24,000 bases of DNA from an uncultured Pseudomonadales bacterium (GCA_964464985.1 CAYXJQ010000007.1:8150-32149), one strand, 5' to 3'. Shown: positions 1 through 24,000, counted from the stretch's first letter. Numbers and translations: made by a program. The notes: a model not told the origin generated them from the letters alone.

Positions 1-2740
1 GATATTTATTAGTATTGTTATTTGTAGCTTCTGCATTACAAACAGTTCCACCTCCATCTTTAAAACAAAACTTTATAGCTCTTTCAATAAAGTCATCTGT
101 AGGATAACTGTTCATCACATCAAAGTAGCGATTTCTAATTTTTTCAGCATCATCTGGTTCTGAGGGTCGATTACAGGTAAATTCAACAGTATCCATGCAA
201 AAAATTAAGTCCATTTCTTGATGTTTGTCATCAATCCAGTTTACGGGGTAGATATGATCATCACCCTCTACGCTAACTGGGCAATAGCCAGCTGAACGCC
301 AGCGAGTTGGTCTTTCCTGACCAGTGTAGTCTGAGGTGCAGTTACCATTTCCTGGTCCATTGTAGCGAGCCAAACCCATTAAGAGAGTTTCGTAATCAAG
401 CTTTACTTTTTCTGGTGGTAAATTTTTCATGTTCATTTTGTCTTTTAAATGTTCCATGGCAATAGTAGCGTCTTCTAGTAAAGTGCCACGCAGAGGACCT
501 CCGTCGAGCAGTGATTGGTCTGGACTCATGCCACCCTCTATCCAATGAATTCCTGCGGCAATTTCACATGGTATGCCCGTAGTGGCTTCTACTTGGCCAT
601 AAACATCGATTAGCTCTGCAGTAACTTTTGGAATAACATAGGTAGCAAAATCACTTAAAGCAATTTCTGGTATTTCTTCATAGTTGGGTAGATCTTCAAC
701 TTTGCTAAAAGCTAAACCTTCACAATTTGCTTCTAACCTGCCTTGAGCGCCTCTACAACGACCTAAGAATAGATCCTCAACTCGTTCGCAAGAAGCTATG
801 TACTCAAAAGCATCATCGGCAGTGCTGCGAACAGTGGTTTGAATTTTTCGAATAAACCAACCAAGTCCGAAATCAGGAAACAATAGTCCATGTTCTGGCG
901 AACCAGCGGTAGTGACACCGAAAGCTTTTTCGTCACAAATTTCCACATAAATAGGATTGCCTAGAGAGTCTGTGGCGCCATCAGGATCTGGTTCTAAGCG
1001 ACAGTTGGTTTTCCAAGAAAAACCATCGCTATCGCTATAAGTCGCATTACTATTTTTAATAGTGTAATATTTTGGAATAACTCCGGTTTTATTTTCCATA
1101 TCGACTAAAACATTGTTTTCTATTAACTGAAAAAGAGAATCTTTGTTCCAAAAAACAGCAAGCGATTTATTAACATCTTTGACGTTTTCGCCAATTGGTA
1201 AAACCAAATATGCTTTAACTTGTGCTTTTTCTCCAGCATCAACAATTGGACTACTAACAGTGATATCCCAAGAAAAGTTGGTTTCTGTTTCACTATCTAA
1301 TCGATCCAACAACTCATTGTTAAGGGGATTATTTTTATAAGGATTGCGAGCAGTGTCATCGAAATATTTTGCAGCAGGGGTAAAAAGGTCTCCGGCTTTT
1401 TCAAAGTGTAAATCGTTGGTATTAACAATATCTTCGATAGTAGTTTCTGTTTCTGGATCTTCTAAATCGATAACGCTTATAGCTTCAACCGAGCAAGATG
1501 GTTTAGCACCGTTAATAATATCAATCAGAGCATTTTCTAACATATTGTCGTAACTTCGTTGACATTGAGGCATGCCAGCACACTGAATAACCTTGTCTTT
1601 TTCAGGCCAAGAATTAGCTTGAGCTGCTGAACCAATTAACAACTCTCTTTCCCAATTTTGATCATCAAGGTCTTGAATATTTTGTTCATTGCTTTGTAAA
1701 ACGAATTTAGTTAATTCTAAACTATCAACATTATCTAAAATGCGTGATTTGTTAGTGGCAAATTCAGGAATTTTAAAAGCAATAAAGAGTGGTGCGTCTT
1801 TTTCATGTAAACCACCGTCTGTTTGCAAGAATTTCAATTTATTGCCGACAGGAGTTTGTCTGGGTACAAGAACTAAAAAAGCTAAACGATAAAGATTGTC
1901 TAAATCAAAACTAACTTTTTGAATTGCTGCTCGATTAATAGCGTAAGTTTCAGTTAAAGCCGGACTTTCTTCTTCTGGATATAGATCTCTACAAATGGCT
2001 GAATTTCGTTCAATTCTTGAGGCGTTTGCTAGTTCGGGATGCATATTGTCAAGGCGTTTTTTAATACCTAGATAATCAAAATTAGCACTAGGAATTCCTA
2101 GTGTTGCATTAGCCTCAATTTCAACTTCTTTGTTTAAAAAACAATTAATAAAAAATTTATCACACAATTCTCCAATAACATCTAGATTGTTTTTTTTGTA
2201 AAAACATTGCCAATAAGAGCTTAAAAGGCGTCCTGCCACTCCAGTTGCGTTTAAATAGTCTTCGTTAGTGAAAGCTTCTTGTAAATTAGCACCGAACATA
2301 CCTTCGAAAGAATCGTTTTTATCAGTAGATTCATTGTCTTCCATGCCACGCAACAGAGGGATGTGAGCATTTTCTAAATTGAGGTATTGGGGGCTGGTAC
2401 CACTAAAGTATCTCAGGGTATTAGGAAACTCTGTAAAATAATCGACAATATCTCCCCAAGCACTAACATCAATTAACCACTCTTTTGAAGCGCAATGTGC
2501 TTCATAGCCTTGGTCAGAAACCATGTTTGACAAAAGAGCAGCATAAATATCGCTATTACCCATGTTTGGGTCAAGAATTAAAGGCAAAACATTGTAAGCA
2601 GCTGAATCTCTTTGGCTTGGACTAAGGTTAAAGGTAGTGGATTCTGTGGCGTTTTGAGCTAAAACAGCGTTTGAGTTTAAATTAGCCAACAAAAAAATAA
2701 AAAACAGGATGATAGTGGTGAGCTTGATAGCTTTAAACAC
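1..2740 (-). CDS. Large secreted cysteine-containing protein, truncated at its 3' end by the window edge (>=913 aa visible), with an internal lytic-transglycosylase-like (SLT/VirB1-like) segment
   Basis: It is absent from the supplied ORF track because its stop codon lies left of position 1. My hand translation of the minus strand from GTG at 2740..2738 stays open down to position 2, and the nearest in-frame upstream stop is TAG at 2776..2774. The N-terminus VFKAIKLTTIILFFIFLLANLNSNAVLAQ looks like a signal peptide. The translation reads as a plausible protein throughout and has many Cys. The segment IPCEIAAGIHWIEGGMSPDQS...LMGLARYNGPGN (about nt 330-620) resembles the SLT catalytic-Glu and AYNxG motifs. 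It lies 38 nt downstream of the two pilin-like genes on the same strand. Confidence 0.7.
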   Translation of the reverse strand, partial: MFKAIKLTTIILFFIFLLANLNSNAVLAQNATESTTFNLSPSQRDSAAYNVLPLILDPNMGNSDIYAALLSNMVSDQGYEAHCASKEWLIDVSAWGDIVDYFTEFPNTLRYFSGTSPQYLNLENAHIPLLRGMEDNESTDKNDSFEGMFGANLQEAFTNEDYLNATGVAGRLLSSYWQCFYKKNNLDVIGELCDKFFINCFLNKEVEIEANATLGIPSANFDYLGIKKRLDNMHPELANASRIERNSAICRDLYPEEESPALTETYAINRAAIQKVSFDLDNLYRLAFLVLVPRQTPVGNKLKFLQTDGGLHEKDAPLFIAFKIPEFATNKSRILDNVDSLELTKFVLQSNEQNIQDLDDQNWERELLIGSAAQANSWPEKDKVIQCAGMPQCQRSYDNMLENALIDIINGAKPSCSVEAISVIDLEDPETETTIEDIVNTNDLHFEKAGDLFTPAAKYFDDTARNPYKNNPLNNELLDRLDSETETNFSWDITVSSPIVDAGEKAQVKAYLVLPIGENVKDVNKSLAVFWNKDSLFQLIENNVLVDMENKTGVIPKYYTIKNSNATYSDSDGFSWKTNCRLEPDPDGATDSLGNPIYVEICDEKAFGVTTAGSPEHGLLFPDFGLGWFIRKIQTTVRSTADDAFEYIASCERVEDLFLGRCRGAQGRLEANCEGLAFSKVEDLPNYEEIPEIALSDFATYVIPKVTAELIDVYGQVEATTGIPCEIAAGIHWIEGGMSPDQSLLDGGPLRGTLLEDATIAMEHLKDKMNMKNLPPEKVKLDYETLLMGLARYNGPGNGNCTSDYTGQERPTRWRSAGYCPVSVEGDDHIYPVNWIDDKHQEMDLIFCMDTVEFTCNRPSEPDDAEKIRNRYFDVMNSYPTDDFIERAIKFCFKDGGGTVCNAEATNNNTNKY

Positions 2741-2778
2741 AAATTTAATTATACAAGAAGTTAGGATAGGGAGCTAGT

Positions 2779-3381
2779 TTAGTTACCCAAGATTTTAATG
2801 CCAAAAATAATTTCAAGTAGTTGAGCAATCCAGTAAGCAGCAAACAAGATGATAAAGCCAATAACTGCTGTGGTAATCATTTGCTTGCCTTCATCAATAC
2901 TTTTTGAGTTAGTGGCTCCAGTTAACATTTTTAAACCAGCTAAAATTAGCATTACGAATAAAATGATGCCTGCGATAGGAAAGGCAAATCGCAAAATCTC
3001 AGTGATGACACCACCTGGAGTAGAGAGCTGATTAGCTTTACTAGAGTATTGTTTAAGAGGATTAAATTGATCGAGCATATCTTTGTTGACTTCAGGGATA
3101 TGAGGAGTTGGAGTTGGAGTTGGAGTTGCTGGGCTAGCATGACAGTTGTCGTTATAATACCAACCACAACACCATTTCTCTACGCCTCCAACGATCCCGA
3201 CTTCAATTTTTGCAAATTCATGATTTGCACAAATACAATCTGAGTCGAATTGACCAGTAGTTGCTCGGTACATATATGTACCGCAATCAATTTCTGCAGC
3301 ATTAACCTGTTTAATATTGAGAAAAAAAGATAAAACAACGATGTTTAAAGCAGTAACTAGTAATATTTTTTTCTTTTTCAT
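2779..3381 (-). CDS. Secreted Cys-rich protein with a PT-repeat linker and a C-terminal VirB2/TrbC-like (CPR 'T4SS pilin' family) two-helix hairpin
   Basis: 200-aa ORF. The signal peptide is MKKKKILLVTALNIVVLSFFLNIKQVNA/AE. A ~65-aa ectodomain with 6 Cys is followed by a PTPTPTPTP linker. The C-terminus is FAFPIAGIILFVMLILAGLKMLTG-ATNSKSIDEGKQ-MITTAVIGFIILFAAYWIAQLL, that is TM1, a short polar loop, then TM2 opening with IxxAxIG, as in VirB2/TrbC-type pilins. A GGAG Shine-Dalgarno sits ~6 nt upstream. The start overlaps the upstream gene's stop as ATGA. Confidence 0.8.
   Translation of the reverse strand: MKKKKILLVTALNIVVLSFFLNIKQVNAAEIDCGTYMYRATTGQFDSDCICANHEFAKIEVGIVGGVEKWCCGWYYNDNCHASPATPTPTPTPHIPEVNKDMLDQFNPLKQYSSKANQLSTPGGVITEILRFAFPIAGIILFVMLILAGLKMLTGATNSKSIDEGKQMITTAVIGFIILFAAYWIAQLLEIIFGIKILGN
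3104..3127. repeat. Perfect hexanucleotide microsatellite (GGAGTT)x4 encoding the PT linker
   Basis: Read directly at 3104-3127. It is in frame within CDS 2779..3381, where it encodes PTPTPTPT on the minus strand. Confidence 0.9.
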
Positions 3382-4301
3382 AATTCTCCAAAACCTGGTA
3401 TTTTGATGACGGATACTCCTATAAATTGCAAAATAGTTACAGAAAAAATAATAAATAATAGGCCAATAATTGCTGAAGTGATTAGCTCCTTTGCCTCTTG
3501 AGTTTTTTTAGGATCACCTTGAGAGGTTGAGAGCATGAATGCTCCGACTAAAATCATAATTAGAACTATTGCTCCCGCAATGATGATGCCTATTTCCATA
3601 ATTGTTGAGATAATTCCTTCGGTCGTTTGGGGAATACATCCTACAGCCGTCCAAATCCCTCCATCATTAAAGCAGCTAATGCAATTATTTAGAGCTTCTC
3701 CCTGATTATTCGATAGTTGTTGCAAACACAAGTTATAGCCCTCACCATCAGCTTCGGTTGGAGAAGTATTGCAAGAATCATCATCACAGCTAGCACTAGT
3801 CTTAAACTCACCGCTGGTTTTAATATGGCAAAGCCAACTCATTTGAGCAAGGGTGAAATTTTTTGCATATTTAACCATTGCAAAATAGGTATTATCTTTA
3901 TCTGAGGATGGCGGATCAAAAGATGTGCTGGCTGAGCCATTGTTGACAGTAACTTTTTTAGGGCTACCCACTAACACTTGGCTTTTAGGACCTGTTTTTT
4001 TATAAATATAAAATTCCACCTTGCCAGTAAAGTATGAGGGATCACCGTGGAAAACAATATTTTTTAATGAAATATTAATTTTACTCGAATCAGTTAAGCA
4101 GCTGCCTGGAAAATAGCAAGTTTTTCCACCTCTATCTTGAGTAAAATGAAAATCTGTTGCAGTAAAGTGTTCATCAACAGGAAAATTATTTACACTACAT
4201 TTTCCGGTACCTAGTTCAGCTGCTTTGACGTTTATATTAAAATTTTCAGATCTTAGTAATAAAAAAAGCAATATTATTAAGATTTTTGTAATTCTTTTCA
4301 C
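3378..4301 (-). CDS. Secreted Cys-rich protein with a C-terminal VirB2/TrbC-like (CPR 'T4SS pilin' family) two-helix hairpin
   Basis: 307-aa ORF with a GTG start. The signal peptide is MKRITKILIILLFLLLRSENFNINVKA/AE. A ~200-aa ectodomain carries 10 Cys. The C-terminus IIIAGAIVLIMILVGAFMLSTSQGDPKKTQEAKELITSAIIGLLFIIFSV is a close match to the T4SS-pilin hairpin pattern (G.F.L.TS.GDP.K...AK..I..AIIGL). It is the first gene of the minus-strand operon. Confidence 0.8.
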   Translation of the reverse strand: MKRITKILIILLFLLLRSENFNINVKAAELGTGKCSVNNFPVDEHFTATDFHFTQDRGGKTCYFPGSCLTDSSKINISLKNIVFHGDPSYFTGKVEFYIYKKTGPKSQVLVGSPKKVTVNNGSASTSFDPPSSDKDNTYFAMVKYAKNFTLAQMSWLCHIKTSGEFKTSASCDDDSCNTSPTEADGEGYNLCLQQLSNNQGEALNNCISCFNDGGIWTAVGCIPQTTEGIISTIMEIGIIIAGAIVLIMILVGAFMLSTSQGDPKKTQEAKELITSAIIGLLFIIFSVTILQFIGVSVIKIPGFGEL

Positions 4302-4364
4302 ATTCTTATTTTATCTTAAAAATGACTGATACAAAAGATCAAAATTTTATGTAAAATAAAGAGA

Positions 4365-6143
4365 GTGATTAGACTGCCACAAAATTTTTTTCAACCAAGT
4401 AAATTGTTTTTTTTAATTGTTTTATTAGTGTTAGTTTTGTTATCATTTAGTTCAAAACTTTTGTTTTCAGGAGTTTATGCTCTTGATGAAGTAGACAAAA
4501 TTCAACAACAAATTGACCAGCTAGATGAGTTAAAAAAACTTTCTGAAGCCGCTACTACGCCATTAGAAGCTGAGGTAGCAACTTTAGAATCTCGCATTCG
4601 ATCGGCTCAGACAGGTATTAATAGTGCTAAGGTTCAAGCGACTGAATTAGCCACCAGTATAGAAGAGAGAGAAGAGGATTTAGCTTACCACTATCAACTT
4701 TTTGCCAATCGAATTGCAGAAAGTTACAGACGTATTCGTAGCTATAATCCCTTAGTGTTAATTTTTACTAGTCAAAGTGCCACCACCTTGACAAAAAACC
4801 TAGCTTATCAAGAGTCAGCTAAGGTTCAGGACGATCGCTTGATTCGCTCAATTTCTGAAGAACTAAAGCAATTAGCTAGCGATAAAAAAGAATTGGAAGA
4901 AACTGAGTTGCGTTTAGCTGCCCTACAAGTACAACTGGATGAACAGGCAGACTTTTTTAAAGGAGAAATTGGTAAAGCGAAGAGTTATCAGGCAGAACTG
5001 AGTGGAAAGATTGCCGAGCTTTCAGCTAAACAACAAGCAATTTTGAGTGCTCGTTCTGGTTCTTATACTACCTCTGTAGGAGATGTGCCTTTAGCAGATG
5101 ATTTTAATGCCTCAATTGCTTTTAAAGCACAAGCTCCAAATAATAGTTTTGCAGTATTTTCTTTTGGGGCTTATACACATCGAAACGGTATGAGCCAATA
5201 TGGAGCGAAAGCTAGAGCAGAAAGTGGTCAGTCAGCTGAACAGATATTATTAGCTTATTATCCAGGATCGCGTTTGGAGAAAAACTATAATGCCATGGAT
5301 CAAATTAGTGTTGATGGTTATGGTAGTATTAGTTTTGAGGGTCAATATTTACAAGGTATTTATGAGATGCCAGCTTCTTGGCACACCGAAGCACTCAAGG
5401 CTCAGGCAATTGCAGCTAGAACTTATGCTATTCGCTACACTGACAATGGTGTTCGATCTATTTGCGCTACTGAGAGCTGTCAAGTTTTTAAAAATAGTCC
5501 CAAAGGTGGTGATTGGCAAAAAGCAGTAGATGCCACAAAAAATTGGGTGTTGCTTGATGGTAGTGGCAATCCAATTTCTACCCAGTATGCTTCTACCCAT
5601 GGTGGTTATACTAATTTTATAGGTTGGGATTTGGATGGTAGTTATAGTAGTGGTTCGTGGAGTACTATAGCTTGGGAGAATCGAGCTAATAGTCCTTGGT
5701 TCTATAAATCTTGGTATCGATCTGGTTATTCAAGTAGTGGTGCTAATTGTGGCCGCAGTCATCCTTGGCTTTCTCAAGAAGATTTTAGTGATATTCTTAA
5801 CGCTTACATCGTGCGACAAAATCCTCAGGGAGCAGACACTGAAAGAATTCAGCCAGTAACAATTAATGAATGCCAAATTGGTGGTGGGGGTGGCAATCCC
5901 TTTTCTAATGCGGAATTGAGAGATTTAGCTAATAAGTCTGGCGGAGCTGTTACCAATGTTAATTCGGTGAGTGTTAGTCACAATAGTAATGGTCAGACTA
6001 GTCAAGTTAGTTTTAGTACCAATCGTGGCAGTATAAGTATGAGTGGTAGTGATTTTAAGACGATTTTTAACTTGCGTGCCCCAGGATATTTGCGAATTCC
6101 ACAGAGCAGTTTTTCTTTTTTTAACATTGAACACAAACAATAA
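4365..6143 (+). CDS. Membrane-anchored coiled-coil protein with a C-terminal SpoIID/LytB (amidase-enhancer) domain
   Basis: 592 aa with a GTG start preceded by AAAGAGA. There is an N-terminal TM segment (LFFLIVLLVLVLLSF), then ~190 aa of heptad-like coiled coil. SpoIID-type motifs follow: YTHRNGMSQYGAKARAESGQSAEQILLAYYPG and EALKAQAIAARTYA. Confidence 0.85.
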   Translation: MIRLPQNFFQPSKLFFLIVLLVLVLLSFSSKLLFSGVYALDEVDKIQQQIDQLDELKKLSEAATTPLEAEVATLESRIRSAQTGINSAKVQATELATSIEEREEDLAYHYQLFANRIAESYRRIRSYNPLVLIFTSQSATTLTKNLAYQESAKVQDDRLIRSISEELKQLASDKKELEETELRLAALQVQLDEQADFFKGEIGKAKSYQAELSGKIAELSAKQQAILSARSGSYTTSVGDVPLADDFNASIAFKAQAPNNSFAVFSFGAYTHRNGMSQYGAKARAESGQSAEQILLAYYPGSRLEKNYNAMDQISVDGYGSISFEGQYLQGIYEMPASWHTEALKAQAIAARTYAIRYTDNGVRSICATESCQVFKNSPKGGDWQKAVDATKNWVLLDGSGNPISTQYASTHGGYTNFIGWDLDGSYSSGSWSTIAWENRANSPWFYKSWYRSGYSSSGANCGRSHPWLSQEDFSDILNAYIVRQNPQGADTERIQPVTINECQIGGGGGNPFSNAELRDLANKSGGAVTNVNSVSVSHNSNGQTSQVSFSTNRGSISMSGSDFKTIFNLRAPGYLRIPQSSFSFFNIEHKQ

Positions 6144-12922: not shown

Positions 12923-13101
12923 TTTTTTAGCTAAATTTAGTAATTTCAAAATTTTAGGAGTTTTCCCTAGTTTTTCGCAAAAATGTGATTTTTTATTTTA
13001 ATGTGGATAACTTTGTTTTTTATCTCAAGTTATTGTCTAAAAAAAATAATATCGGACATCTAAAAAAAGCTGTTTTTTAAATTATAGGATATCATTAGTG
13101 C

Positions 13102-13129
13102 TTGTAAAAATTATAAAAACTGCTAAAAT
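13102..13129 (+). promoter_or_regulatory. Candidate sigma70-type promoter inside the radA-rho spacer (TTGTAA-16 nt-TAAAAT)
   Basis: The -35-like TTGTAA is at 13102-13107 and the -10-like TAAAAT at 13124-13129, with a 16-nt spacer. AT-rich DNA produces such matches easily. Confidence 0.25.
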
Positions 13130-13135
13130 TATTTT

Positions 13136-13554
13136 TGTCTTAGTACTTTAATTAAAACAGGAATTTCTAGCCGTTTTTCAAACGCTTAGATTAGTCTTTA
13201 GATGGATATAGATTAGTTTAAGGATGTTTTGAAAAAGGGTGGAATAAAAAATCCATCCCGTTTAAGTCTTGGGTTTTAAGGCAGTCAAGAACCTAAACAG
13301 AATGGATTGTTGAGAACATTGTTACCGCTGATAGTTCACAAATAACAATGTAATCCTGTCGTTGTTGAAAAATATCAACAACTGATCGCTTATTAAGCTA
13401 GCATTTTTTGTCGTCTTTGACAATTCTCGCTTAAGCTATAAAAAGCTATCAAAAAGTATCATAGCCGAGTAAAGCTGCCTACACGAAGAACTTTTTGTGG
13501 AATCTCGGTCGTTGGGCAGGCTACCGAGACTCCGCAGAAAGTTTTTTATTTTTT
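13136..13554 (+). ncRNA. Candidate structured non-coding transcript or long leader (unclassified)
   Basis: No ORF of >=60 aa exists on either strand. There are perfect hairpins at 13316-13351 (9-bp stem ACATTGTTA/TAACAATGT) and 13361-13382 (8-bp stem GTTGTTGA/TCAACAAC). The region ends in a strong plus-strand intrinsic terminator. I could not match it to tmRNA, RNase P, SRP or tRNA signatures. Confidence 0.3.
13491..13554 (+). terminator. Rho-independent terminator, plus-strand orientation
   Basis: The 5' arm 13491-13509 pairs with the 3' arm 13523-13541, giving 11 bp + 7 bp around a 1x1 mismatch, with a 13-nt loop. The stem includes two G.U pairs (T13498-G13534 and T13495-G13537) that would be C.A mismatches on the minus strand. 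It is followed by TTTTTTATTTTTT. Confidence 0.6.
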
Positions 13555-13562
13555 CTTTAGGC

Positions 13563-13591
13563 TTGATTTTTTCTCGTTTTTTTGTCATAAT
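13563..13591 (+). promoter_or_regulatory. Candidate rho promoter (TTGATT-17 nt-CATAAT)
   Basis: The -35-like TTGATT is at 13563-13568 and the -10-like CATAAT at 13586-13591, with a 17-nt spacer. It sits immediately after the terminator and ~90 nt upstream of the rho ATG. The rho ATG is preceded by GAAGG at 13670-13674. Confidence 0.35.
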
Positions 13592-13681
13592 CTCCTTGGT
13601 TTTCAGTTCTTATTAAGTGATGCCCCTTTTTTCTTATCTATTTTTTCAAAAAATGAAATTTATTATTTAGAAGGTAATTTT

Positions 13682-17400: not shown

Positions 17401-19481
17401 TTAAGAGTTTCTTCTTCAGAAGTTAATCTATTTTCGCGTAATAAATTTGAGGTTTCTTGTTCGTTGAGTAGGTTAGTGAGGCTAGAATCTTCTGTTGCCT
17501 CTAATAATGGTTCTGCTCCTGGATCAATTATTTCAGGTTCTAAATTCAAAACTTGAGATTCAGCTTGTGGTTGAAGCGCTTGTGTTTCAGCTTGAGTTCG
17601 TAATTGATCAGCTTGTTCACTGACTATAACTAATTCTTTTTCAACTATAGTGTAATCTTCTAAATCAGTTTCCGGATTGATAAGGATGAGGGCTTGTTGT
17701 AGAGCATTTTCTGCCTCTAAAATTTGTCCGCCTTGAATGTAAGCTTGAGCCAAATTGTAGTAGGCAACAGCTAAATCTGGTTTTCTCTCAATTGCTTGAA
17801 TAAAGAAATTGCTTGCTTGTTCCCATTGTTCAAGTCTCATAAGTAATAATCCGAGATTCATTCTAATTAAAGGATCATTGGGACTTGTTAGAACAGCTTG
17901 AGACAGAGATTCAAAAGCCAACTGGCTAGCATCTTCGGTAACTTCTAGAAGTTGTAAATATACGTTGGTTAACACCAACCAGTTTTGATAAAATTTTGGT
18001 TGTAAAATTGTTGCCGCCCTAGCTTCGGTAATAGCAACATTAATTAATTCTAGTACTTGCTCTTGATCTACTGGAGTAATATCTGTCTTGTTTGATAGAG
18101 CTATTGCCAACTCTAGAGAGGTGGTTGCATAATTTCGTCGCCAAATTGCTGAACGGTTAGCTAAGTTGCGTGCTTGTTCTTGTTTAATAAAAGCAAGGTT
18201 AAAATCTTCTTTGCTTGCAGCTACTGTAGCTTGGTAGGTGGCAGCATGAGCCGCATAATTTAGGGCAAGTTGATAACTTAGAAAAATCACTCCCGTCATA
18301 AACAAAAGTGAAATTGTGGTGAAAGTATAGCGATTGGCTTTATTATTAGGTTGTAGATTAAATGGATCAAAAAGATTATTGAAGGAAAATTTTTTAATTT
18401 TATAGTTATCTAAATTAGCTGCCAGATAGAAACTGATGACTAAAGCTAATAAGCCTAACATCAATATATTGAGAGGTAAAATTATTTGCCAGATAATTGC
18501 TGTAATAATAAAATATTTAAGCACTTGAGCCCTTTGAGTTTTTTTAATATTTACTAAAGCTATAGTTCTAGATACGAAGAATAACCAACTCAAAAACGCT
18601 AATAGGCCACCACTTACAATTAAAGTGAGAGGAAAAGCAGTGGCGCTTTCAAAACTAAGTTGCCAAAACTCAGAAGTATTGAGCCAAGCTGGTTTAAGTA
18701 AATGAAAAGCTTGTCCATAACTATTTGGGCCAAAACCAAACAAAGCAGTGCGACTAACTACCAAACTTTCTCTAGCAATAGCTATGCTGGCTGGAAGTGG
18801 CAACAATATTGGACTAGTTTCTTGGCTGGGTAGAGCGGCATATATATTAATGCCCAAGCCAATAACTAAGGTAGCAATGATTGTTTTTTGCAAGATGCTT
18901 GATCTTTGGTTTTTAGATAAAACATTGGTCATTATTAGGGCAGAGAGTAGTTGAATGTTTAACAAAACTCCACCACTTAGGCTAAAAGAGAGGTTGTTGG
19001 GAAATTCAAAAACACTTAGTTGGTTAAAAATTTGACTAAAACCAAATCCGAACAATTGTAGTATTGAGCCAAAAACAATAATTAGTCCAGCAACATTAAG
19101 AACCTGTATTAGTTTTTGACTATGGTCTTTTTTGATTAGGGTTGGCGCGAAAACGATAATAGTGGCGAAACTCAAGAAAAAACCACCCCAGCCAACCAAT
19201 TGATCGAAGGGGTATTGATGAGTAACCAAGCTACTCAACAAGATACTTCCAGCAAAAAGAATTAGAGGTAATACTAAGGGATTAGAGCTAATTAGCCACT
19301 TTTTTTCTTTAAAACTCTGCACGATGTAAGTGGCCAGAGTACCTAAAGCTAAGAAAAATAACAGTATGCCTTTGGTATTAACGAAAGGATTATTAATGGA
19401 GGGGATTAAAAAAACAGGTAACAGAAATACTAAGATTAAAGTGAACAAGGTAAAGGCGTTTGTTTTATTGTTTTTAAACAT
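17397..19481 (-). CDS. Polytopic membrane protein with a C-terminal TPR domain; candidate Wzy/WaaL (O-antigen ligase/polymerase)-like or GT-C-type glycan transferase
   Basis: 694 aa. There are roughly 10-12 hydrophobic helices in the first ~410 aa. The motif ARESLVVSRTALFGFGPNSYGQAF resembles the R...(P)xFGxGxxxF motif of O-antigen-ligase-family proteins. TPR-like repeats are present (DLAVAYYNLAQAYIQGGQILEAENALQQAL), followed by an acidic tail. The family assignment is tentative. Confidence 0.6.
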   Translation of the reverse strand: MFKNNKTNAFTLFTLILVFLLPVFLIPSINNPFVNTKGILLFFLALGTLATYIVQSFKEKKWLISSNPLVLPLILFAGSILLSSLVTHQYPFDQLVGWGGFFLSFATIIVFAPTLIKKDHSQKLIQVLNVAGLIIVFGSILQLFGFGFSQIFNQLSVFEFPNNLSFSLSGGVLLNIQLLSALIMTNVLSKNQRSSILQKTIIATLVIGLGINIYAALPSQETSPILLPLPASIAIARESLVVSRTALFGFGPNSYGQAFHLLKPAWLNTSEFWQLSFESATAFPLTLIVSGGLLAFLSWLFFVSRTIALVNIKKTQRAQVLKYFIITAIIWQIILPLNILMLGLLALVISFYLAANLDNYKIKKFSFNNLFDPFNLQPNNKANRYTFTTISLLFMTGVIFLSYQLALNYAAHAATYQATVAASKEDFNLAFIKQEQARNLANRSAIWRRNYATTSLELAIALSNKTDITPVDQEQVLELINVAITEARAATILQPKFYQNWLVLTNVYLQLLEVTEDASQLAFESLSQAVLTSPNDPLIRMNLGLLLMRLEQWEQASNFFIQAIERKPDLAVAYYNLAQAYIQGGQILEAENALQQALILINPETDLEDYTIVEKELVIVSEQADQLRTQAETQALQPQAESQVLNLEPEIIDPGAEPLLEATEDSSLTNLLNEQETSNLLRENRLTSEEETLN

Positions 19482-19547
19482 ATTTTCCAGGCTAGTTAAT
19501 TGTTTTTTTTACTAGTTTATACTACACTAAATACACAAACAATTTCT

Positions 19548-20270
19548 ATGTTTAATATAGCGAAAAAAACTCCTAAAGTGAAGCGGCAGTTATCCAAAAA
19601 ACTAGAGAAAAAGTGGCAAAAAGGTGTTACTCTGATAGAGGTATTAATGGTGGTGGCCATTCTTTTAGTGTTGATGATAGCTCTTTATCATACTATAGGT
19701 CGTGAAATAGATAAATCCAGGGATGCTAATCGTAAAAAAGACCTGAAAGAAATAAAAATTGCGTTTGAGAATTATTATAATGATCATGGCTGTTATCCTC
19801 AGGATAATATTTTAGAGAATTGTGGGGGAGGGGAATTAAGACCTTATTTGCCAGAAATTCCCTGTGACCCTTTGGGTTTTCCTTATTTATATTTACCAAT
19901 ATCTGATATTTTTGCTAATAATAACTGTGGTGGCTACAGAGTGCTAACTCGTATAGGTATTCTTAATGATCCTGATATAGAAGCAGTTGGTTGCCCAGAG
20001 GGCTGTGGAGGGATACCAGCGGGAATTTCTTCACCAGAAAGCTATAATTACGGCATAGCTGAAGGACTGGCGCTTGATCAAACCCCTCCGCCAGTAGATA
20101 CGATAGATCCTTCTTTATGTACTCCTGAAGCTCATTGTTATTGTTGTCCTGCTCCAGGAGACCAATGCAATTCTTGGTGGCCAGCAGGGGGAGGGGTTTG
20201 TAGTGTGGGCGGACCATACAGGACACTAGATGATTGTTATAACAACACAGAATGCAATCAGTTTTATTAA
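19548..20270 (+). CDS. Type IV pilin / pseudopilin-like protein with a long basic leader and a Cys-rich C-terminal region
   Basis: The track ORF starts at TTG 19500, but I prefer ATG 19548 (MFNIAKKTPKVKRQLSKKLEKKWQKG/VTLIEVLMVVAILLVL). It has a class III (prepilin) signal with G at -1 and E at +5. The GspG-like block RDANRKKDLKEIKIAFENYYNDHGCYP follows. The mature part has 14 Cys. Confidence 0.8.
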   Translation: MFNIAKKTPKVKRQLSKKLEKKWQKGVTLIEVLMVVAILLVLMIALYHTIGREIDKSRDANRKKDLKEIKIAFENYYNDHGCYPQDNILENCGGGELRPYLPEIPCDPLGFPYLYLPISDIFANNNCGGYRVLTRIGILNDPDIEAVGCPEGCGGIPAGISSPESYNYGIAEGLALDQTPPPVDTIDPSLCTPEAHCYCCPAPGDQCNSWWPAGGGVCSVGGPYRTLDDCYNNTECNQFY

Positions 20271-20285
20271 TTTTTAAAAGTAGTT

Positions 20286-20834
20286 ATGTTGACAAAACGT
20301 CTAAATAAACAGCAATTATCCTCAGGATTTACACTATTGGAATTATTGGTGGTCATGATAATCTTAGCTTTGCTGGCAGGCATAGGGTTGATGTCTTTTG
20401 GTACTGTACAACAAAAATCTAGAGATAGTGCTCGTAAACAAGATTTAACCAGTATTTCTAAAGCGCTAGAGCTTTACTACAATGATTACGGATCTTATCC
20501 TCTCTCTAGTCCCATAGATGGACAAATTGAGGGCTGTGGAATGGATGCAGAAGAAACATGTGAGTGGGGAGAAATTTGGTCCAATAGTTCTGATGACACC
20601 TTATACATGAACATGCTGCCCAAAGATCCTTTGGTAGATTGGAAATATTACTATCGTCAAGTGAACAGTGGTTATTATCTTTTTGCTCGTTTGGAAAATG
20701 AAGAGGATCCGTCGATAGCGCTTAGTGGTGGTGATCCAGCTTTTTATGCAAACACTAATTGTACTGGAGAAAGTGATAGTTGTAATTATGTGATTAAGAG
20801 TAGTAATTTGAGTGAAGAGCCTACAATATTTTAA
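20286..20834 (+). CDS. Type IV pilin / pseudopilin-like protein
   Basis: 182 aa. The prepilin signal is MLTKRLNKQQLSSG/FTLLELLVVMIILALLAGIGL, followed by RDSARKQDLTSISKALELYYNDYGSYP. It has 4 Cys. Confidence 0.85.
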   Translation: MLTKRLNKQQLSSGFTLLELLVVMIILALLAGIGLMSFGTVQQKSRDSARKQDLTSISKALELYYNDYGSYPLSSPIDGQIEGCGMDAEETCEWGEIWSNSSDDTLYMNMLPKDPLVDWKYYYRQVNSGYYLFARLENEEDPSIALSGGDPAFYANTNCTGESDSCNYVIKSSNLSEEPTIF

Positions 20835-20857
20835 AATTAATGGGCAAGGTTTAAACT

Positions 20858-21331
20858 ATGATAAAAATTAGCAAGTCTAATCAAAGAAAAAAAGCTTTTA
20901 CTCTTATAGAATTATTAATAGTTATTGCTGTAATAGGTGTTTTAATAGCAATAATTTTACCTAATTTAATTGGAATGCGTGAGCGAGCAAGAGACAGTAA
21001 GAGAAAAAATGATTTAGCACAGCTAAAAACTGCTCTTAGGATGTATTTTAATGATTATAATAGTTACCCCCAGTCTTCTATTGATGAAAAAATTTGTTGC
21101 AGCGATCCCATTACTTGCGATCAATGTATTGACAGTATTTTTGCAGTAGCTGGTCAGACATATACCAAAGACTTGCCTGAAATCTATACATATACACCAA
21201 GAAATGCTGGACAAGGTTTTTTATTGAGTACCATCTTAGAGAATGCTTCAGATAAAGATATAGAAGCTAGTGTCGCTCGTTGTCAGGTGGTTTCATCAAC
21301 ACCCAACACTTTCTACATTTGTGAAGATTAA
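20858..21331 (+). CDS. Type IV pilin / pseudopilin-like protein (Ala at the -1 cleavage position)
   Basis: 157 aa. The prepilin signal is MIKISKSNQRKKA/FTLIELLIVIAVIGVLIAIILPNL, followed by ARDSKRKNDLAQLKTALRMYFNDYNSYP. It has 6 Cys. AAGG lies ~10 nt upstream of the ATG. Confidence 0.85.
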   Translation: MIKISKSNQRKKAFTLIELLIVIAVIGVLIAIILPNLIGMRERARDSKRKNDLAQLKTALRMYFNDYNSYPQSSIDEKICCSDPITCDQCIDSIFAVAGQTYTKDLPEIYTYTPRNAGQGFLLSTILENASDKDIEASVARCQVVSSTPNTFYICED

Positions 21332-21340
21332 TGATTCACA

Positions 21341-22489
21341 TTAAAGGTTTAGGCCTTCTAGATTGATGCCTTGGAATTCTAAGCCGCCGCCTTCACCGTC
21401 TTCTCCAATATTTAAGGCAGGTGTTTGACACCACTCTCCAGTTATTGAATTCTTGACAATAGCAATTTGATATTGATATTTGTTGCCTGCAGTCGTTGAA
21501 TCATCAGTATATTCGCGCAGGGATGAAGAGACATTAGTATCCAAATCAGTAAATCCTGCATCATTAACATTGCGTTGGATGATGAATTTTTCTACGTCTG
21601 TCAGTTCTGTATCCCATAAAATTAGTAGTTCTGTATTTTCAGCATTTCTTTTTAACAAGCAACTGGTTGGACGTTTCGGACCAAGATTGGCTGTGGTAAA
21701 ACTTCCAGAAGTAGACCAATTACCTACACCACCCTGATTGTCAGAAAATCTAATACGCCAATAATAAGTAGTGCCGTTAAAAGATAGGGTGCTACCGCCA
21801 TAAGTTATGTTAGGAGATCTGGAGCCAATAGCTGTATCAGTCATAGTTTGCAAGCCACTATCCCACATGCTGGTGCCATCAAAGTTTGTTGAAGTGTTGA
21901 CTTGAACCTGATAGTAAGTGCCATAGTCTCCTGTATTTGGATCTTGAAAAACAGCGCTAAAATAAGGGCTAGTGGTTTCAACTCCAGTTGGATTAGTTAG
22001 TCCATTTGCTAATAAACTAGTTGGAGTTGTGGGAGGAACATTCATACTAAATGAAGCAATGCTTGACCAAGCACCTTCTGTATCTTCTCTATCGTAGAAT
22101 CTAATTCGCCAATAATAAGTGTTCCCATCTAAAGATAAAGTATCTCCAGAATATGTTATATCAGGAGACCTGACGCCAATAGCTGTATTGGTCATTGAAA
22201 CTTTACCGCTATCCCACATACTACCAGATAGATCAGCTGTTTCAAAAACTTGTAGTTGATAATACATTCCATAATCATCTGTATCTGGATCTTGAAAAAC
22301 AGCGCTAAATTCTGGCGAAGTATCGGTAATGCCAGTGGGATTTGTTTGACCCTCGCACAAAAGAGATGTTGGAGCTGTAGGTGGGGTGCCATAAGAAGCC
22401 TGAGCTGAACTAGTCATAGTTAAGTAGGCTAAAGTTATCACAATTGAGTAGAAAACTTTTAGGGTTTTCTTATTTTTTTGTTTAATCAT
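21341..22489 (-). CDS. Secreted protein with two tandem FN3-like domains of the rhamnosidase-N-terminal type plus a third FN3-like domain
   Basis: 382 aa with the signal peptide LKVFYSIVITLAYLTMTSSAQA/SY. Residues 36-149 and 152-266 are paralogous repeats matching the pattern SP.FSAVFQDP....YG.YYQ.QV.......MWDSG......TAIG.RSP.ITY.G.TLS..G.TYYWRIRF.D. This echoes the P.FSW...Q.aY.i.v...lWDSGkv.s....v.Y.G..L.s...YyW.V motif of GH78-associated FN3-like domains. The start overlaps the upstream gene's stop by 8 nt. Confidence 0.8.
   Translation of the reverse strand: MIKQKNKKTLKVFYSIVITLAYLTMTSSAQASYGTPPTAPTSLLCEGQTNPTGITDTSPEFSAVFQDPDTDDYGMYYQLQVFETADLSGSMWDSGKVSMTNTAIGVRSPDITYSGDTLSLDGNTYYWRIRFYDREDTEGAWSSIASFSMNVPPTTPTSLLANGLTNPTGVETTSPYFSAVFQDPNTGDYGTYYQVQVNTSTNFDGTSMWDSGLQTMTDTAIGSRSPNITYGGSTLSFNGTTYYWRIRFSDNQGGVGNWSTSGSFTTANLGPKRPTSCLLKRNAENTELLILWDTELTDVEKFIIQRNVNDAGFTDLDTNVSSSLREYTDDSTTAGNKYQYQIAIVKNSITGEWCQTPALNIGEDGEGGGLEFQGINLEGLNL
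21692..22384 (-). repeat. Intragenic tandem duplication of two ~345-nt units, each encoding an FN3-like domain
   Basis: Unit 1 spans 22043-22384 and unit 2 spans 21692-22036. My hand alignment of the encoded peptides gives 71 identical residues out of 114 aligned positions with one 1-residue gap. Confidence 0.8.
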
Positions 22490-23168
22490 TCTGTCTTTTT
22501 ATAAATTTTTGCTTTATTTCTTCTATCTTATTAACTACTTTTTCGTTTTTACTGAGTATGACGCCACCTATTATTAGGCCTACAATAATGACAGTTACAA
22601 TTAGATATGTAACTAATTGTTTAGTTTTAATCTTACTGAGCCAATTAGTTTGAGTAGCAAATAATTTATTATTTTCATCTTCTGGTTCAATTTCTGCAAA
22701 GTCTTCTCCTAGAGATAAAGTACTTAAAGTCACTTCTTGTTCATTTGTATCATTCTGAGTTTCTAAACTAGAAAAATTTTCATTTTTTTCTAATTTAGCC
22801 TGAATATTATAAAAACCATCTTCTAAATTTAAAACACTAAAGAGTACAAACCAGTTCCCATATTGGTCAACAGTTGTTTCTAACTGTCTTTCTCCAAAAA
22901 TGATGGTGATTTTGGCTCCTGGTTGGGCTTGACCAGCTATTTTAACTGCATCGCCCTCAGTTACATGCACTCTGTTTGATTGGGTTTTATCGACAACCTC
23001 ATTATTAATTGCGACGTAATCTAGTATTGGTGCTGAATTTTGATTATTTTGACTAACAGATAGCGTATTAGCTTTAATCCCATTTGAATAAAAGAATCCA
23101 AGCCCAAGAATAATAAGGCCGATGATAATTGGGAGGTGTTTTTTTTTGGTTGGGTGAAATTTAGACAT
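22482..23168 (-). CDS. Bitopic surface protein: N-terminal signal/anchor, Ig-like beta domain, acidic spacer and C-terminal TM anchor
   Basis: 228 aa. The N-terminal hydrophobic segment is LPIIIGLIILGLGFFY. The segment VHVTEGDAVKIAGQAQPGAKITIIFGERQLETTVDQYGNWFVLFSVLNLEDGFYNIQA resembles bacterial Ig-like (Big) domains. The C-terminal TM is LVTYLIVTVIIVGLIIGGVILS, followed by a basic tail. Confidence 0.65.
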   Translation of the reverse strand: MSKFHPTKKKHLPIIIGLIILGLGFFYSNGIKANTLSVSQNNQNSAPILDYVAINNEVVDKTQSNRVHVTEGDAVKIAGQAQPGAKITIIFGERQLETTVDQYGNWFVLFSVLNLEDGFYNIQAKLEKNENFSSLETQNDTNEQEVTLSTLSLGEDFAEIEPEDENNKLFATQTNWLSKIKTKQLVTYLIVTVIIVGLIIGGVILSKNEKVVNKIEEIKQKFIKRQND

Positions 23169-23280
23169 TTTTTTAATTTAAACTAATACTATAATAATAA
23201 CAGTTTATTGTAAGTTTTACATTTTGAAAACAAGCAATTGATGCATGATGCTTTTTTGTGATATTTATACATAATTATAT

Positions 23281-24000
23281 CTAGTTAATAATCCACCAAT
23301 TAAACTGAACATCTTTGTTTAAAGCAAAATCAAATCCAACAGTAAATTCTGCTTCATTTTCAGCAGTAAAGTCACTATCTAACAATTTATTTTTGATATA
23401 AATAACTTGATTATTTGTAGATGTGAGTGGTGTGATGTAAATCATGCTGTTTTCACTAAGCCGAGTGGTTTTAATTTTTACTTCAGTTTGACCTGCAACA
23501 ATTACTGCTTGTCCAGCGCTGTTATTGTTGATATTTGCAGAAGCACTGGCATCAGCAGAAGCACTGGCATCGGCAGGCATCTGATCAACCTTCAGGCCAC
23601 CGCGCAGAGTTAAATCTCCACTAGCCGACATTGTCGCTATTGGTTCTCCTTTTTCATCTACAAATTCAAAGTTATTTTCTCTAATTACCTCTTCACCTAT
23701 TTCATTAGCGACTGCCTGAGCGAGTTGAACACGGATATTTTCATCTGGATTATTGGCTTTAATAAGGTTGGTGAGTAAAGTATTCTTTACCTTTAGTTCT
23801 TCACCAACTTCTAGAGTACCGGCTACTTTTAGATCACCACTGATGTTGACTAAACCATTTTCGTTTAAAACTAATAAATCGGCCATCAGCGAGAGGCGAC
23901 CTTTGCCAGACGGTTGAATAGATAAATCATAATTATCGTTATTTTGAAAAGCTATATAGCCGTCACCCATAGTTAAACCTTCTCCAACTAATAAAGTTTG
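23281..24000 (-). CDS. Beta-strand-rich hypothetical surface protein, truncated at its 5' end by the window edge
   Basis: The track gives 23281..23970 from an internal Met. The frame stays open upstream to position 24000 (..QTLLVGEGLTMGDGY..), so the true start is probably outside the window. It contains G/V/L-rich short beta-like repeats (LVNISGDLKVAGTLEVGEELKV), a DASASADASASA repeat and the C-terminus ..FTVGFDFALNKDVQFNWWIIN. Confidence 0.65.
   Translation of the reverse strand, partial: QTLLVGEGLTMGDGYIAFQNNDNYDLSIQPSGKGRLSLMADLLVLNENGLVNISGDLKVAGTLEVGEELKVKNTLLTNLIKANNPDENIRVQLAQAVANEIGEEVIRENNFEFVDEKGEPIATMSASGDLTLRGGLKVDQMPADASASADASASANINNNSAGQAVIVAGQTEVKIKTTRLSENSMIYITPLTSTNNQVIYIKNKLLDSDFTAENEAEFTVGFDFALNKDVQFNWWIIN
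23537..23577. repeat. 18-bp tandem repeat of ~2.3 copies (GCAGAAGCACTGGCATCA/G) encoding DASASA units
   Basis: Copy 1 spans 23537-23554. Copy 2 spans 23555-23572 with one mismatch. A partial third copy follows. The repeat is in frame within CDS 23281..24000. Confidence 0.85.

Follow-up and report, generated by a model that had tools for sequence, protein, structure and literature searches.

The DNA analysed here is a 24,000-nt stretch (the window) of a 44.6-kb source contig (JGI MLSed_10001099, referred to as L001). At its left end lie three minus-strand genes, all in the same direction, which encode two pilin-like proteins of 307 and 200 amino acids (aa), named pilA and pilB in this work, and a big protein of 931 aa. 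The order pilA, pilB, big protein was read from the open reading frame (ORF) listing and from the frames of the window itself (Table 1). pilA and pilB overlap as ATGA, and the big-protein gene starts after a spacing of 38 nt. This last gene continues beyond the window, which holds 913 aa of the product, and is complete at L001 10642–13437; it is missing from the ORF list because the lister leaves out frames that are cut by the window edge. The first-pass annotation had described three co-directional genes with signal peptides, the same overlap and gap, and a third gene of at least 913 aa that the ORF track had missed, all of which was borne out. A promoter and terminator scan of positions 1–4600, with output at chance level, found no terminator-like site between the genes of the trio and no convincing consensus promoter in the intergenic region upstream of pilA.

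All three N termini can be read as Sec signal peptides, in which a basic n-region precedes a hydrophobic core and a site of the AxA type. Sequence reading and hydropathy predict cleavage at VKA↓AE in pilA, VNA↓AE in pilB and VLA↓QN in the 931-aa protein, which would leave mature proteins of ~280 aa for pilA and ~172 aa for pilB. Hydropathy also reveals two long hydrophobic stretches at the C terminus of each smaller protein (residues 227–263 and 270–304 in pilA, 123–158 and 167–198 in pilB). There are 10 cysteines in pilA, six in pilB and 20 in the part of the 931-aa protein that lies in the window; the first two counts agree exactly with the first-pass annotation, which had also placed a PT linker in one of the two; this Pro/Thr linker, SPATPTPTPTPH, lies in the 200-aa protein.

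Table 1. Genes and protein features of the trio, in window coordinates; residue numbers refer to the encoded protein.
Feature	Position	Strand	Description
pilA gene	3378..4301	-	ORF, 307 aa, GTG start; signal peptide, immunoglobulin (Ig)-like beta-sandwich, Cys-rich connector and C-terminal PF18895 hairpin
pilA signal peptide (predicted)	4221..4301	-	aa 1-27; hydrophobic stretch aa 7-25; modelled helix aa 2-20
pilA hypervariable beta-sandwich ectodomain (modelled)	3795..4202	-	aa 34-169; strands pLDDT 94-97
pilA conserved Cys-rich connector	3633..3788	-	aa 172-223; motif GIWTAVGCIP
pilA VirB2-type hairpin	3405..3623	-	model helices aa 227-259 and 264-299; loop SQGDPKKTQEAKE
pilB gene	2779..3381	-	ORF, 200 aa, ATG start; signal peptide, one 6-Cys module, PT linker, conserved pre-hairpin segment and PF18895 hairpin
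pilB 6-Cys module	3142..3285	-	aa 33-80; C-G..C-x-C..C-C-G-W..C; one copy in the window protein
pilB Pro/Thr (PT) linker	3103..3135	-	SPATPTPTPTP, aa 83-93
pilB VirB2-type hairpin	2788..3012	-	aa 124-198; loop GATNSKSIDEGKQ
Big-protein gene	1..2740	-	GTG start at 2740; open for 913 codons (2740 to 2) to the window edge
Conserved core of big protein	746..2572	-	aa ~57-665; aligns with P0060 and P0062; many invariant columns in alignment A2
C-terminal helical domain of big protein	2..745	-	aa 666-913 in the window; candidate lysozyme-like wall hydrolase
Intergenic region between pilA and SpoIID-like gene	4302..4364		63 bp, divergent; presumed promoter region of the trio

The C-terminal hairpins of both smaller proteins match the Pfam family PF18895 (T4SS_pilin) above its gathering cut-off of 26.6 bits, with 30.4 bits for pilA (residues 229–294) and 34.2 bits for pilB (residues 124–189), and both matches span positions 7–71 of the 71-position model. 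The first-pass annotation had recognised a VirB2/TrbC-type 'T4SS pilin' motif in them, of a kind common in CPR bacteria, and these scores bear it out. PF04956 (TrbC/VirB2) gave no match to pilA in the Pfam search. By profile score, pilA and pilB thus belong to PF18895 and not, at Pfam thresholds, to the canonical TrbC/VirB2 family. The NCBIfam Mbov_0395 family, a pilin-like conjugal transfer protein of the Mycoplasma integrative and conjugative element, matched both proteins weakly and below its cut-off (pilA 28.6 bits versus 40). The overall arrangement, a signal peptide (its cleavage read from sequence alone) followed by two hydrophobic helices with a short basic loop between them, is nevertheless that of VirB2-type proteins. 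AlphaFold2, run with 83 homologues, models pilA with a mean pLDDT of 87.5; the hairpin helices in this model are 33 and 36 residues long, longer than a plain membrane span. A type IV pilin or type II secretion system (T2SS) pseudopilin identity was considered and rejected; neither protein matches N_methyl or T2SSG.

Searches at E<=1e-3 returned 639 homologues of pilA and 3305 cluster representatives of the pilB family, and these numbers put the features described here far beyond chance. Among the best 150 of the 3305 pilB-family representatives, the hairpin sits at the extreme C terminus in every one, the median length is 207 aa (range 83–564 aa), and 134 have an even number of cysteines after the signal peptide. 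The even counts are consistent with extracellular disulfides, and the median length indicates that the N-terminal extension is a lineage-wide architecture, not a peculiarity of the source locus. N-terminal, probably disulfide-bonded domains therefore seem to be common in the pilB clade.

The domains between signal peptide and hairpin, which had been described as Cys-rich and globular, differ between the two proteins. In pilA, the model shows a folded beta-sandwich. Foldseek comparison of the model with the PDB returned generic Ig-like matches only (best E=2e-3), so no specific adhesin or carbohydrate-binding module family can be named, and local phmmer searches confined this N-domain to proteins at the pilA position. 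The connector that follows is modelled with short helices at residues 187–195 and 201–212, and its cysteines C177, C192, C207, C210 and C222 are invariant or nearly so in alignment A1. In pilB, the globular part is a 6-Cys module with the pattern C-G-x(10-20)-C-x-C-x(15-35)-C-C-G-[WFY]-x(5-10)-C. Orthologues carry 0, 1, 2, 3 or 4 such units in tandem (0, 6, 12, 18 or 24 cysteines), followed by the linker and a conserved LNPL...LSTPGG segment ahead of the hairpin. Across the loci mapped, orthologues measure 209–439 aa for pilA and 142–357 aa for pilB. In some lineages pilB is as short as 142–162 aa and near-canonical; pilA is never below ~207 aa.

The two halves of these proteins have followed different courses. 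We compared the source contig with its closest genome (L005), to which SBP, VanW, SpoIID and the big protein are 87–96% identical. The C-terminal modules of pilA and pilB are 70% and 84% identical to their counterparts there, and the N-domains only about 20% (pilA) and about 36% (pilB). The 120 pilA homologues compared fall into at least seven sequence groups by N-domain, with the window and L005 types in separate groups. In distant genomes the pilin C-modules remain 57–68% identical, versus 46–62% for SpoIID and 43–46% for the big protein, and the pilA hairpin is 57–83% identical across the class. Many Gly, Ser, Ala and Glu positions in the C-modules are invariant. By these alignments, the hairpins are strongly conserved, and the ectodomains have been swapped or have diverged past recognition between close relatives. 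A constraint of this strength on the hairpin is unexpected for a mere membrane anchor.

To the left of the window, L001 carries the rest of the 931-aa gene and then genes for a 292-aa cytoplasmic protein (opposite strand), a 583-aa polytopic membrane protein and a 1299-aa charged protein (opposite strand), before a large gene that the contig end truncates; Pfam has no match to any of them. The 583-aa protein, encoded ~1 kb beyond the window, is a candidate VirB6-like protein in which a hydrophobic N-terminal segment precedes a polytopic core (residues ~154–403). Only one of 18 orthologues matches TrbL/VirB6 (E=5.2e-6), and no PDB sequence match was found. The start of the large gene encodes a homologue of a conserved ~1112-aa protein, labelled x1112, which is located upstream of PrgI in related loci and has a weak Peptidase_M23 match in relatives that makes it a second candidate hydrolase. 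The remainder of the cluster can be followed in the orthologous loci L005 and L049, where the 931-aa protein is 88% identical and where x1112 is followed by a 135-aa membrane protein, PrgI/VirB3, a 374-aa TrsD-like/TraC-like protein, VirB4, dnaA, dnaN, rnpA and yidC. The PrgI/VirB3 match is 27.6 bits (Pfam cut-off 27). That of the TrsD-like protein is weak (NCBIfam 27.4 bits versus a cut-off of 200), and there is a precomputed match to TraC-like PF26593. VirB4 of L049 (731 aa; P-loop_TraG 90.7 bits, AAA_10 45.3 bits) is encoded 13.8 kb downstream of pilB, with dnaA directly after it.

We mapped ORFs and hidden Markov model (HMM) matches in 36 loci from one-genome-per-species contigs and 15 loci from Joint Genome Institute (JGI) metagenomes. 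The trio is syntenic in about 45 Microgenomatia loci, which share the invariant order SBP(-), VanW(+), SpoIID(-), pilA, pilB, big protein, a ~290-aa protein (-), VirB6-like protein, a variable large protein (-) and x1112, and every complete locus has two adjacent pilin genes. The record titles name Pacebacteria, Woesebacteria and Microgenomatus, and three of the genomes with an orthologous locus appear as Microgenomatia with VirB4 in Table S1 of PMC12102498. By gene content and order, then, the trio opens a chromosomal MPF-FATA-like T4SS cluster of an ultrasmall Microgenomatia (Patescibacteria/candidate phyla radiation, CPR) bacterium. The first-pass annotation had suggested a T4SS-like apparatus continuing off the left edge, for which VirB6-like, PrgI/VirB3, TrsD-like and VirB4 proteins now speak, with the VirB6-like candidate in the source contig itself and the other three in orthologous loci. 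Its interpretation of the locus was in essence correct.

Several observations were made alongside. The protein between the big protein and the VirB6-like gene (L001 13444-14322, minus strand) has conserved cytoplasmic orthologues of ~265-335 aa with no known domain. The large charged protein (L001 16207-20106, minus strand) is also cytoplasmic, with no predicted membrane segment; it ranges from 719 to 1388 aa across loci and measures 1299 versus 748 aa in genomes that are otherwise ~90% identical. In L049 the cluster adjoins the dnaA-dnaN-rnpA-yidC origin region (18178-22971), and in L054 and L008/L059 it lies at 12-50 kb of contigs of 805-841 kb, which fits the origin proximity reported in PMC12102498. 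Loci L009, L011-L014, L016-L018 and others come from third-party annotation records of metagenome-assembled genomes titled 'uncultured Pseudomonadales bacterium' despite a clearly patescibacterial locus, and this title looks like a mislabel. An origin of the locus in a mobile element, phage or defence system was considered and rejected: PHROGs returned nothing notable, the flanking genes are housekeeping genes, and in relatives the locus sits beside dnaA.

The 931-aa protein has 65 homologues, is always encoded directly downstream of the two pilins in the loci mapped, and ranges from 853 to 1199 aa among orthologues. It has no Pfam or NCBIfam match, and neither the protein nor its family profile matched any PDB sequence. 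Its core, which could be modelled at medium to low confidence only, carries one of three tail types, between which hhalign detected no relationship (probabilities <1%). The tail found in the window is modelled with a pLDDT of about 86–96 and contains the motif GIPCE..AGIHW.EGG, whose Glu, His and Asp residues are invariant (alignments A2/A5); its profile gave a chance match only in the PDB (E=0.4). Four of 32 distant syntenic orthologues have an SLT_3 lysozyme-like tail instead (best E=5e-14), as does P0060, in which a weak, sub-threshold GH5-like (Cellulase) match accompanies the SLT_3 domain. P0062, which L060 encodes where other loci have the big protein, joins this core to a pilA-type connector and PF18895 hairpin and so physically links the big protein to the pilins. 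At that locus (L060 1505-4628, JGI Ga0675942_0008722) two genes of 387 and 567 aa occupy the place of the big protein, the second being the core-pilin fusion, which may be natural or may have resulted from rearrangement of the gene. The SLT_3-type tail at L040 12008-12493 translates with a run of X, which stands for N or masked positions in the deposited sequence.

The system itself is already known, and T4SS clusters with arrays of PF18895 pilins have been published (PMC10633639, PMC12102498). In Candidatus Southlakia epibionticum (S. epibionticum) ML1, the T4SS cluster SEML1_0006-0019 is essential, and SEML1_0014-0019 carry PF18895; in none of them does the domain extend past residue 180, and those genes whose length is stated measure 381–417 nt (Wang et al., 2023, PMC10633639). 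Like the cluster described here, that of ML1 is a monoderm-type T4SS in a patescibacterial chromosome, with neither relaxase nor coupling protein in the ML1 cluster, and its order of VirB4, a small gene, PrgI, a 999-aa protein, a VirB6-like protein and the pilins (SEML1_0008-0019) mirrors the order here. The two differ in that ML1, a member of the Saccharimonadia, has six pilins of ~126-138 aa where given, whereas the Microgenomatia locus has two, of 200 and 307 aa, with folded Cys-rich ectodomains and a 931-aa partner. A survey of 3035 genomes with PF18895 and PF04956 detected VirB2-like pilins in 1948 assemblies, with 441 arrays of 2–11 pilin genes that occur mainly in Microgenomatia and Saccharimonadia, and noted proximity to dnaA (Quinonero-Coronel et al., 2025, PMC12102498). 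Our locus shares PF18895, tandem pilins near virB4 and the proximity of the cluster to dnaA with these arrays. The survey treats its matches as pilins and discusses divergence within arrays; ectodomain fusions, the 6-Cys repeat, N-domain replacement and the 931-aa partner are not described in the sections of it that we covered. Patescibacterial T4SSs have been called unique among monoderms for their pilus potential (review, PMC12857230), and in a structure-clustering preprint PF18895 dominates among the Pfam domains of freshwater-specific clusters.

The canonical VirB2/TrbC/TraA pilins (PF04956) of the T-, F- and RP4 pilus resemble pilA and pilB in having a signal peptide, two hydrophobic helices, a short basic loop and VirB4 and VirB6 (here a VirB6-like candidate) encoded alongside. 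Mature canonical pilins, however, are the hairpin nearly alone (~50-80 aa), whereas here 95-200 folded ectodomain residues precede the hairpin and the host is a monoderm. The big protein likewise recalls the VirB1-type hydrolases of Gram-positive systems (TrsG, CD419 and PrgK-like proteins, with SLT and peptidase domains), which are large, secreted or membrane-associated multidomain proteins in T4SS clusters, and some of its orthologues contain SLT_3; the window protein differs from them in having no detectable SLT, CHAP or M23 domain and a ~600-aa core that matches nothing known. No description of ectodomain-bearing pilins was found in the texts searched. What appears to be new is the hypervariable ectodomain-bearing pilins, the 6-Cys repeat and the conserved, modular 931-aa partner.

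Taking these observations as a whole, we lean slightly towards pilA and pilB being pilins of a T4SS with variable host-contact ectodomains and a secreted, wall-active partner. The signal peptide would be cut and the hairpin held in the membrane as in VirB2, so that its two ends face outward and the basic loop (GDPKK or NSKS..GK) faces inward; the VirB4/VirB6/VirB3 machine would then extract hairpins and stack them into a short pilus or stub. The subunit of the T-pilus is a U-shaped chain with both termini outward, and the pilus has C5 symmetry, an outer diameter of 76 A and a rise of 13.4 A. Because VirB2 pili have both termini on the outer face, the ectodomains should point outward, and the Ig-like domain of pilA and the 6-Cys modules of pilB on their PT stalk would project as variable host-contact determinants. 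pilB, which shrinks to near-canonical size, is the likelier shaft subunit; pilA, which never does, is likelier to be a minor or tip adhesin subunit. The 931-aa protein would be co-transcribed and secreted as an accessory, its conserved core bearing an enzymatic head at the C terminus that can be exchanged, and it probably cleaves peptidoglycan, opening the cell's own wall or that of the host at the contact site.

Polymerisation into a decorated pilus is our inference. Rough arithmetic from the T-pilus figures gives ~640 A^2 of shaft surface per subunit, and an Ig-like domain has a footprint of ~1000 A^2. Such a domain would fit only with its centre at a radius of ~60 A or more, which the 50-aa connector or the PT stalk could provide. 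Mixed filaments are just as possible as full decoration.

A number of results weigh against pilA and pilB being T4SS pilins with a wall-active partner. pilB reaches only 18.9 bits with PF04956 (E=0.0018), below the cut-off of 27.9. A profile of 42 hairpins compared with all PDB chain sequences found no pilin, the best match being an ABC permease (E=0.29). The source contig ends inside the x1112 homologue, so VirB4 is evidenced in orthologous loci alone. Two opposite-strand genes interrupt the cluster, and the SpoIID/VanW/SBP flanks are equally syntenic near the origin, which means that conserved order is no proof of a functional link. As to the partner, the C-terminal domain in the window has no Pfam match, hhalign gives a probability of 0.7% for its relationship to the SLT_3-type tail, and in Foldseek searches of the 931-aa model against the PDB and BFVD lysins and transglycosylases rank first with all E>1, a ranking that we take as a hint. 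To our knowledge, no pilus of any patescibacterial T4SS has been seen so far, and we know of no precedent among solved conjugative pili for a bulky domain on every subunit.

A rival reading is that the PF18895 hairpin is a static, two-pass membrane anchor. pilA and pilB would then be surface adhesins or envelope proteins, possibly docked to the T4SS and unpolymerised, and the T4SS would operate with no pilus, like those of other monoderms. Gram-positive-type (MPF-FATA) T4SSs are generally without pili (PMC12102498, PMC10633639), large ectodomains are unprecedented on conjugative pilins, and there is no sequence link to solved pilins. The strongest argument for an anchor is the range of lengths over which one hairpin carries cargo, in proteins of 83-564 aa and even with a ~480-aa core. 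Yet a single helix or a lipobox would be enough for mere anchoring, S. epibionticum has small PF18895 pilins that are essential and are encoded inside its T4SS cluster (PMC10633639), and, most tellingly, conservation of the hairpin exceeds that of neighbouring housekeeping proteins and includes many invariant small residues and the loop, while its helices run to 33-36 residues. We regard a static anchor as rather unlikely, though it deserves serious consideration. The equal synteny of the SBP-VanW-SpoIID block and the T4SS genes, the mere 63 bp between pilA and the divergent SpoIID gene, and the chance that the 931-aa protein is a wall hydrolase would all suit a different role, in which the trio works with the SpoIID-like, VanW-like and M23/LysM genes in envelope growth or division and its nearness to the T4SS is a frozen gene order of the origin region. 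Against this, 1135 assemblies from classes with differing gene neighbourhoods encode members of the pilin domain family near virB4 (PMC12102498), and the S. epibionticum cluster combines pilins with VirB6 and VirB4, with SpoIID not listed within it (PMC10633639). Hypervariable surface domains also fit a foreign partner better than housekeeping wall synthesis, and we consider a role in cell-wall remodelling very improbable.

The modular tail of the big protein raises the further question of whether it is itself delivered, as a polymorphic effector whose exchangeable toxin or lysin heads are directed at the host cell, with pilA and pilB as its membrane partners in export or presentation and not as subunits of a filament. 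Three unrelated tail types on one core at the same locus position are typical of polymorphic toxins, and the fusion to a pilin hairpin in P0062 and the SLT_3 and GH5-like domains in P0060 fit this picture. The next gene, however, is not a small immunity-like gene but encodes the conserved 265-335-aa cytoplasmic protein on the opposite strand; the 931-aa protein has a Sec signal peptide and no known T4SS substrate signal; and the tail types follow phylogenetic groups, with 88% full-length identity to L005. Delivery as an effector or toxin is therefore improbable in our estimation.

If pilA and pilB are indeed T4SS pilins, a more specific and, at present, doubtful proposal is that of a display pilus: a VirB2-type filament of a monoderm T4SS whose subunits bear exchangeable, disulfide-locked host-recognition domains (Ig-like, 0-4 six-Cys modules, or a ~480-aa core in one lineage). 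Cassette-like replacement of the ectodomains would set the host range of Microgenomatia, and the co-encoded modular hydrolase would open the wall. Such a filament would be a type of surface filament undescribed among conjugative pili, built by the only apparatus demonstrated as essential to the epibiotic lifestyle of a patescibacterium in culture, and if Microgenomatia pilins do carry hypervariable domains on a conserved module, the pilin array would be a host-recognition organ. The proposal predicts that ectodomain type tracks the host, that antibodies or nanobodies to the ectodomain block attachment, and that decorated filaments are visible by cryo-electron tomography; the 931-aa protein and the P0062 fusion offer handles for biochemistry.

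Other parts of the window contain features unrelated to the trio. At positions 19500-21331 (plus strand), three genes encoding proteins of 256, 182 and 157 aa have the N_methyl prepilin motif and a weak T2SS-G match, and form a type IV pilin array, an unrelated second pilus system. A region of ~760 bp at 12923-13681, between a RadA-like gene and rho, contains no ORF of at least 90 aa and no tRNA or Rfam match (scans for both were empty over the whole window) and may be a long rho leader. At 21341-23970 (minus strand) there are three genes, one with two Rha78A-like N-terminal Ig domains (108.8 bits) and one with a weak C-terminal K1-lyase match, whose products may be surface glycan-active proteins.

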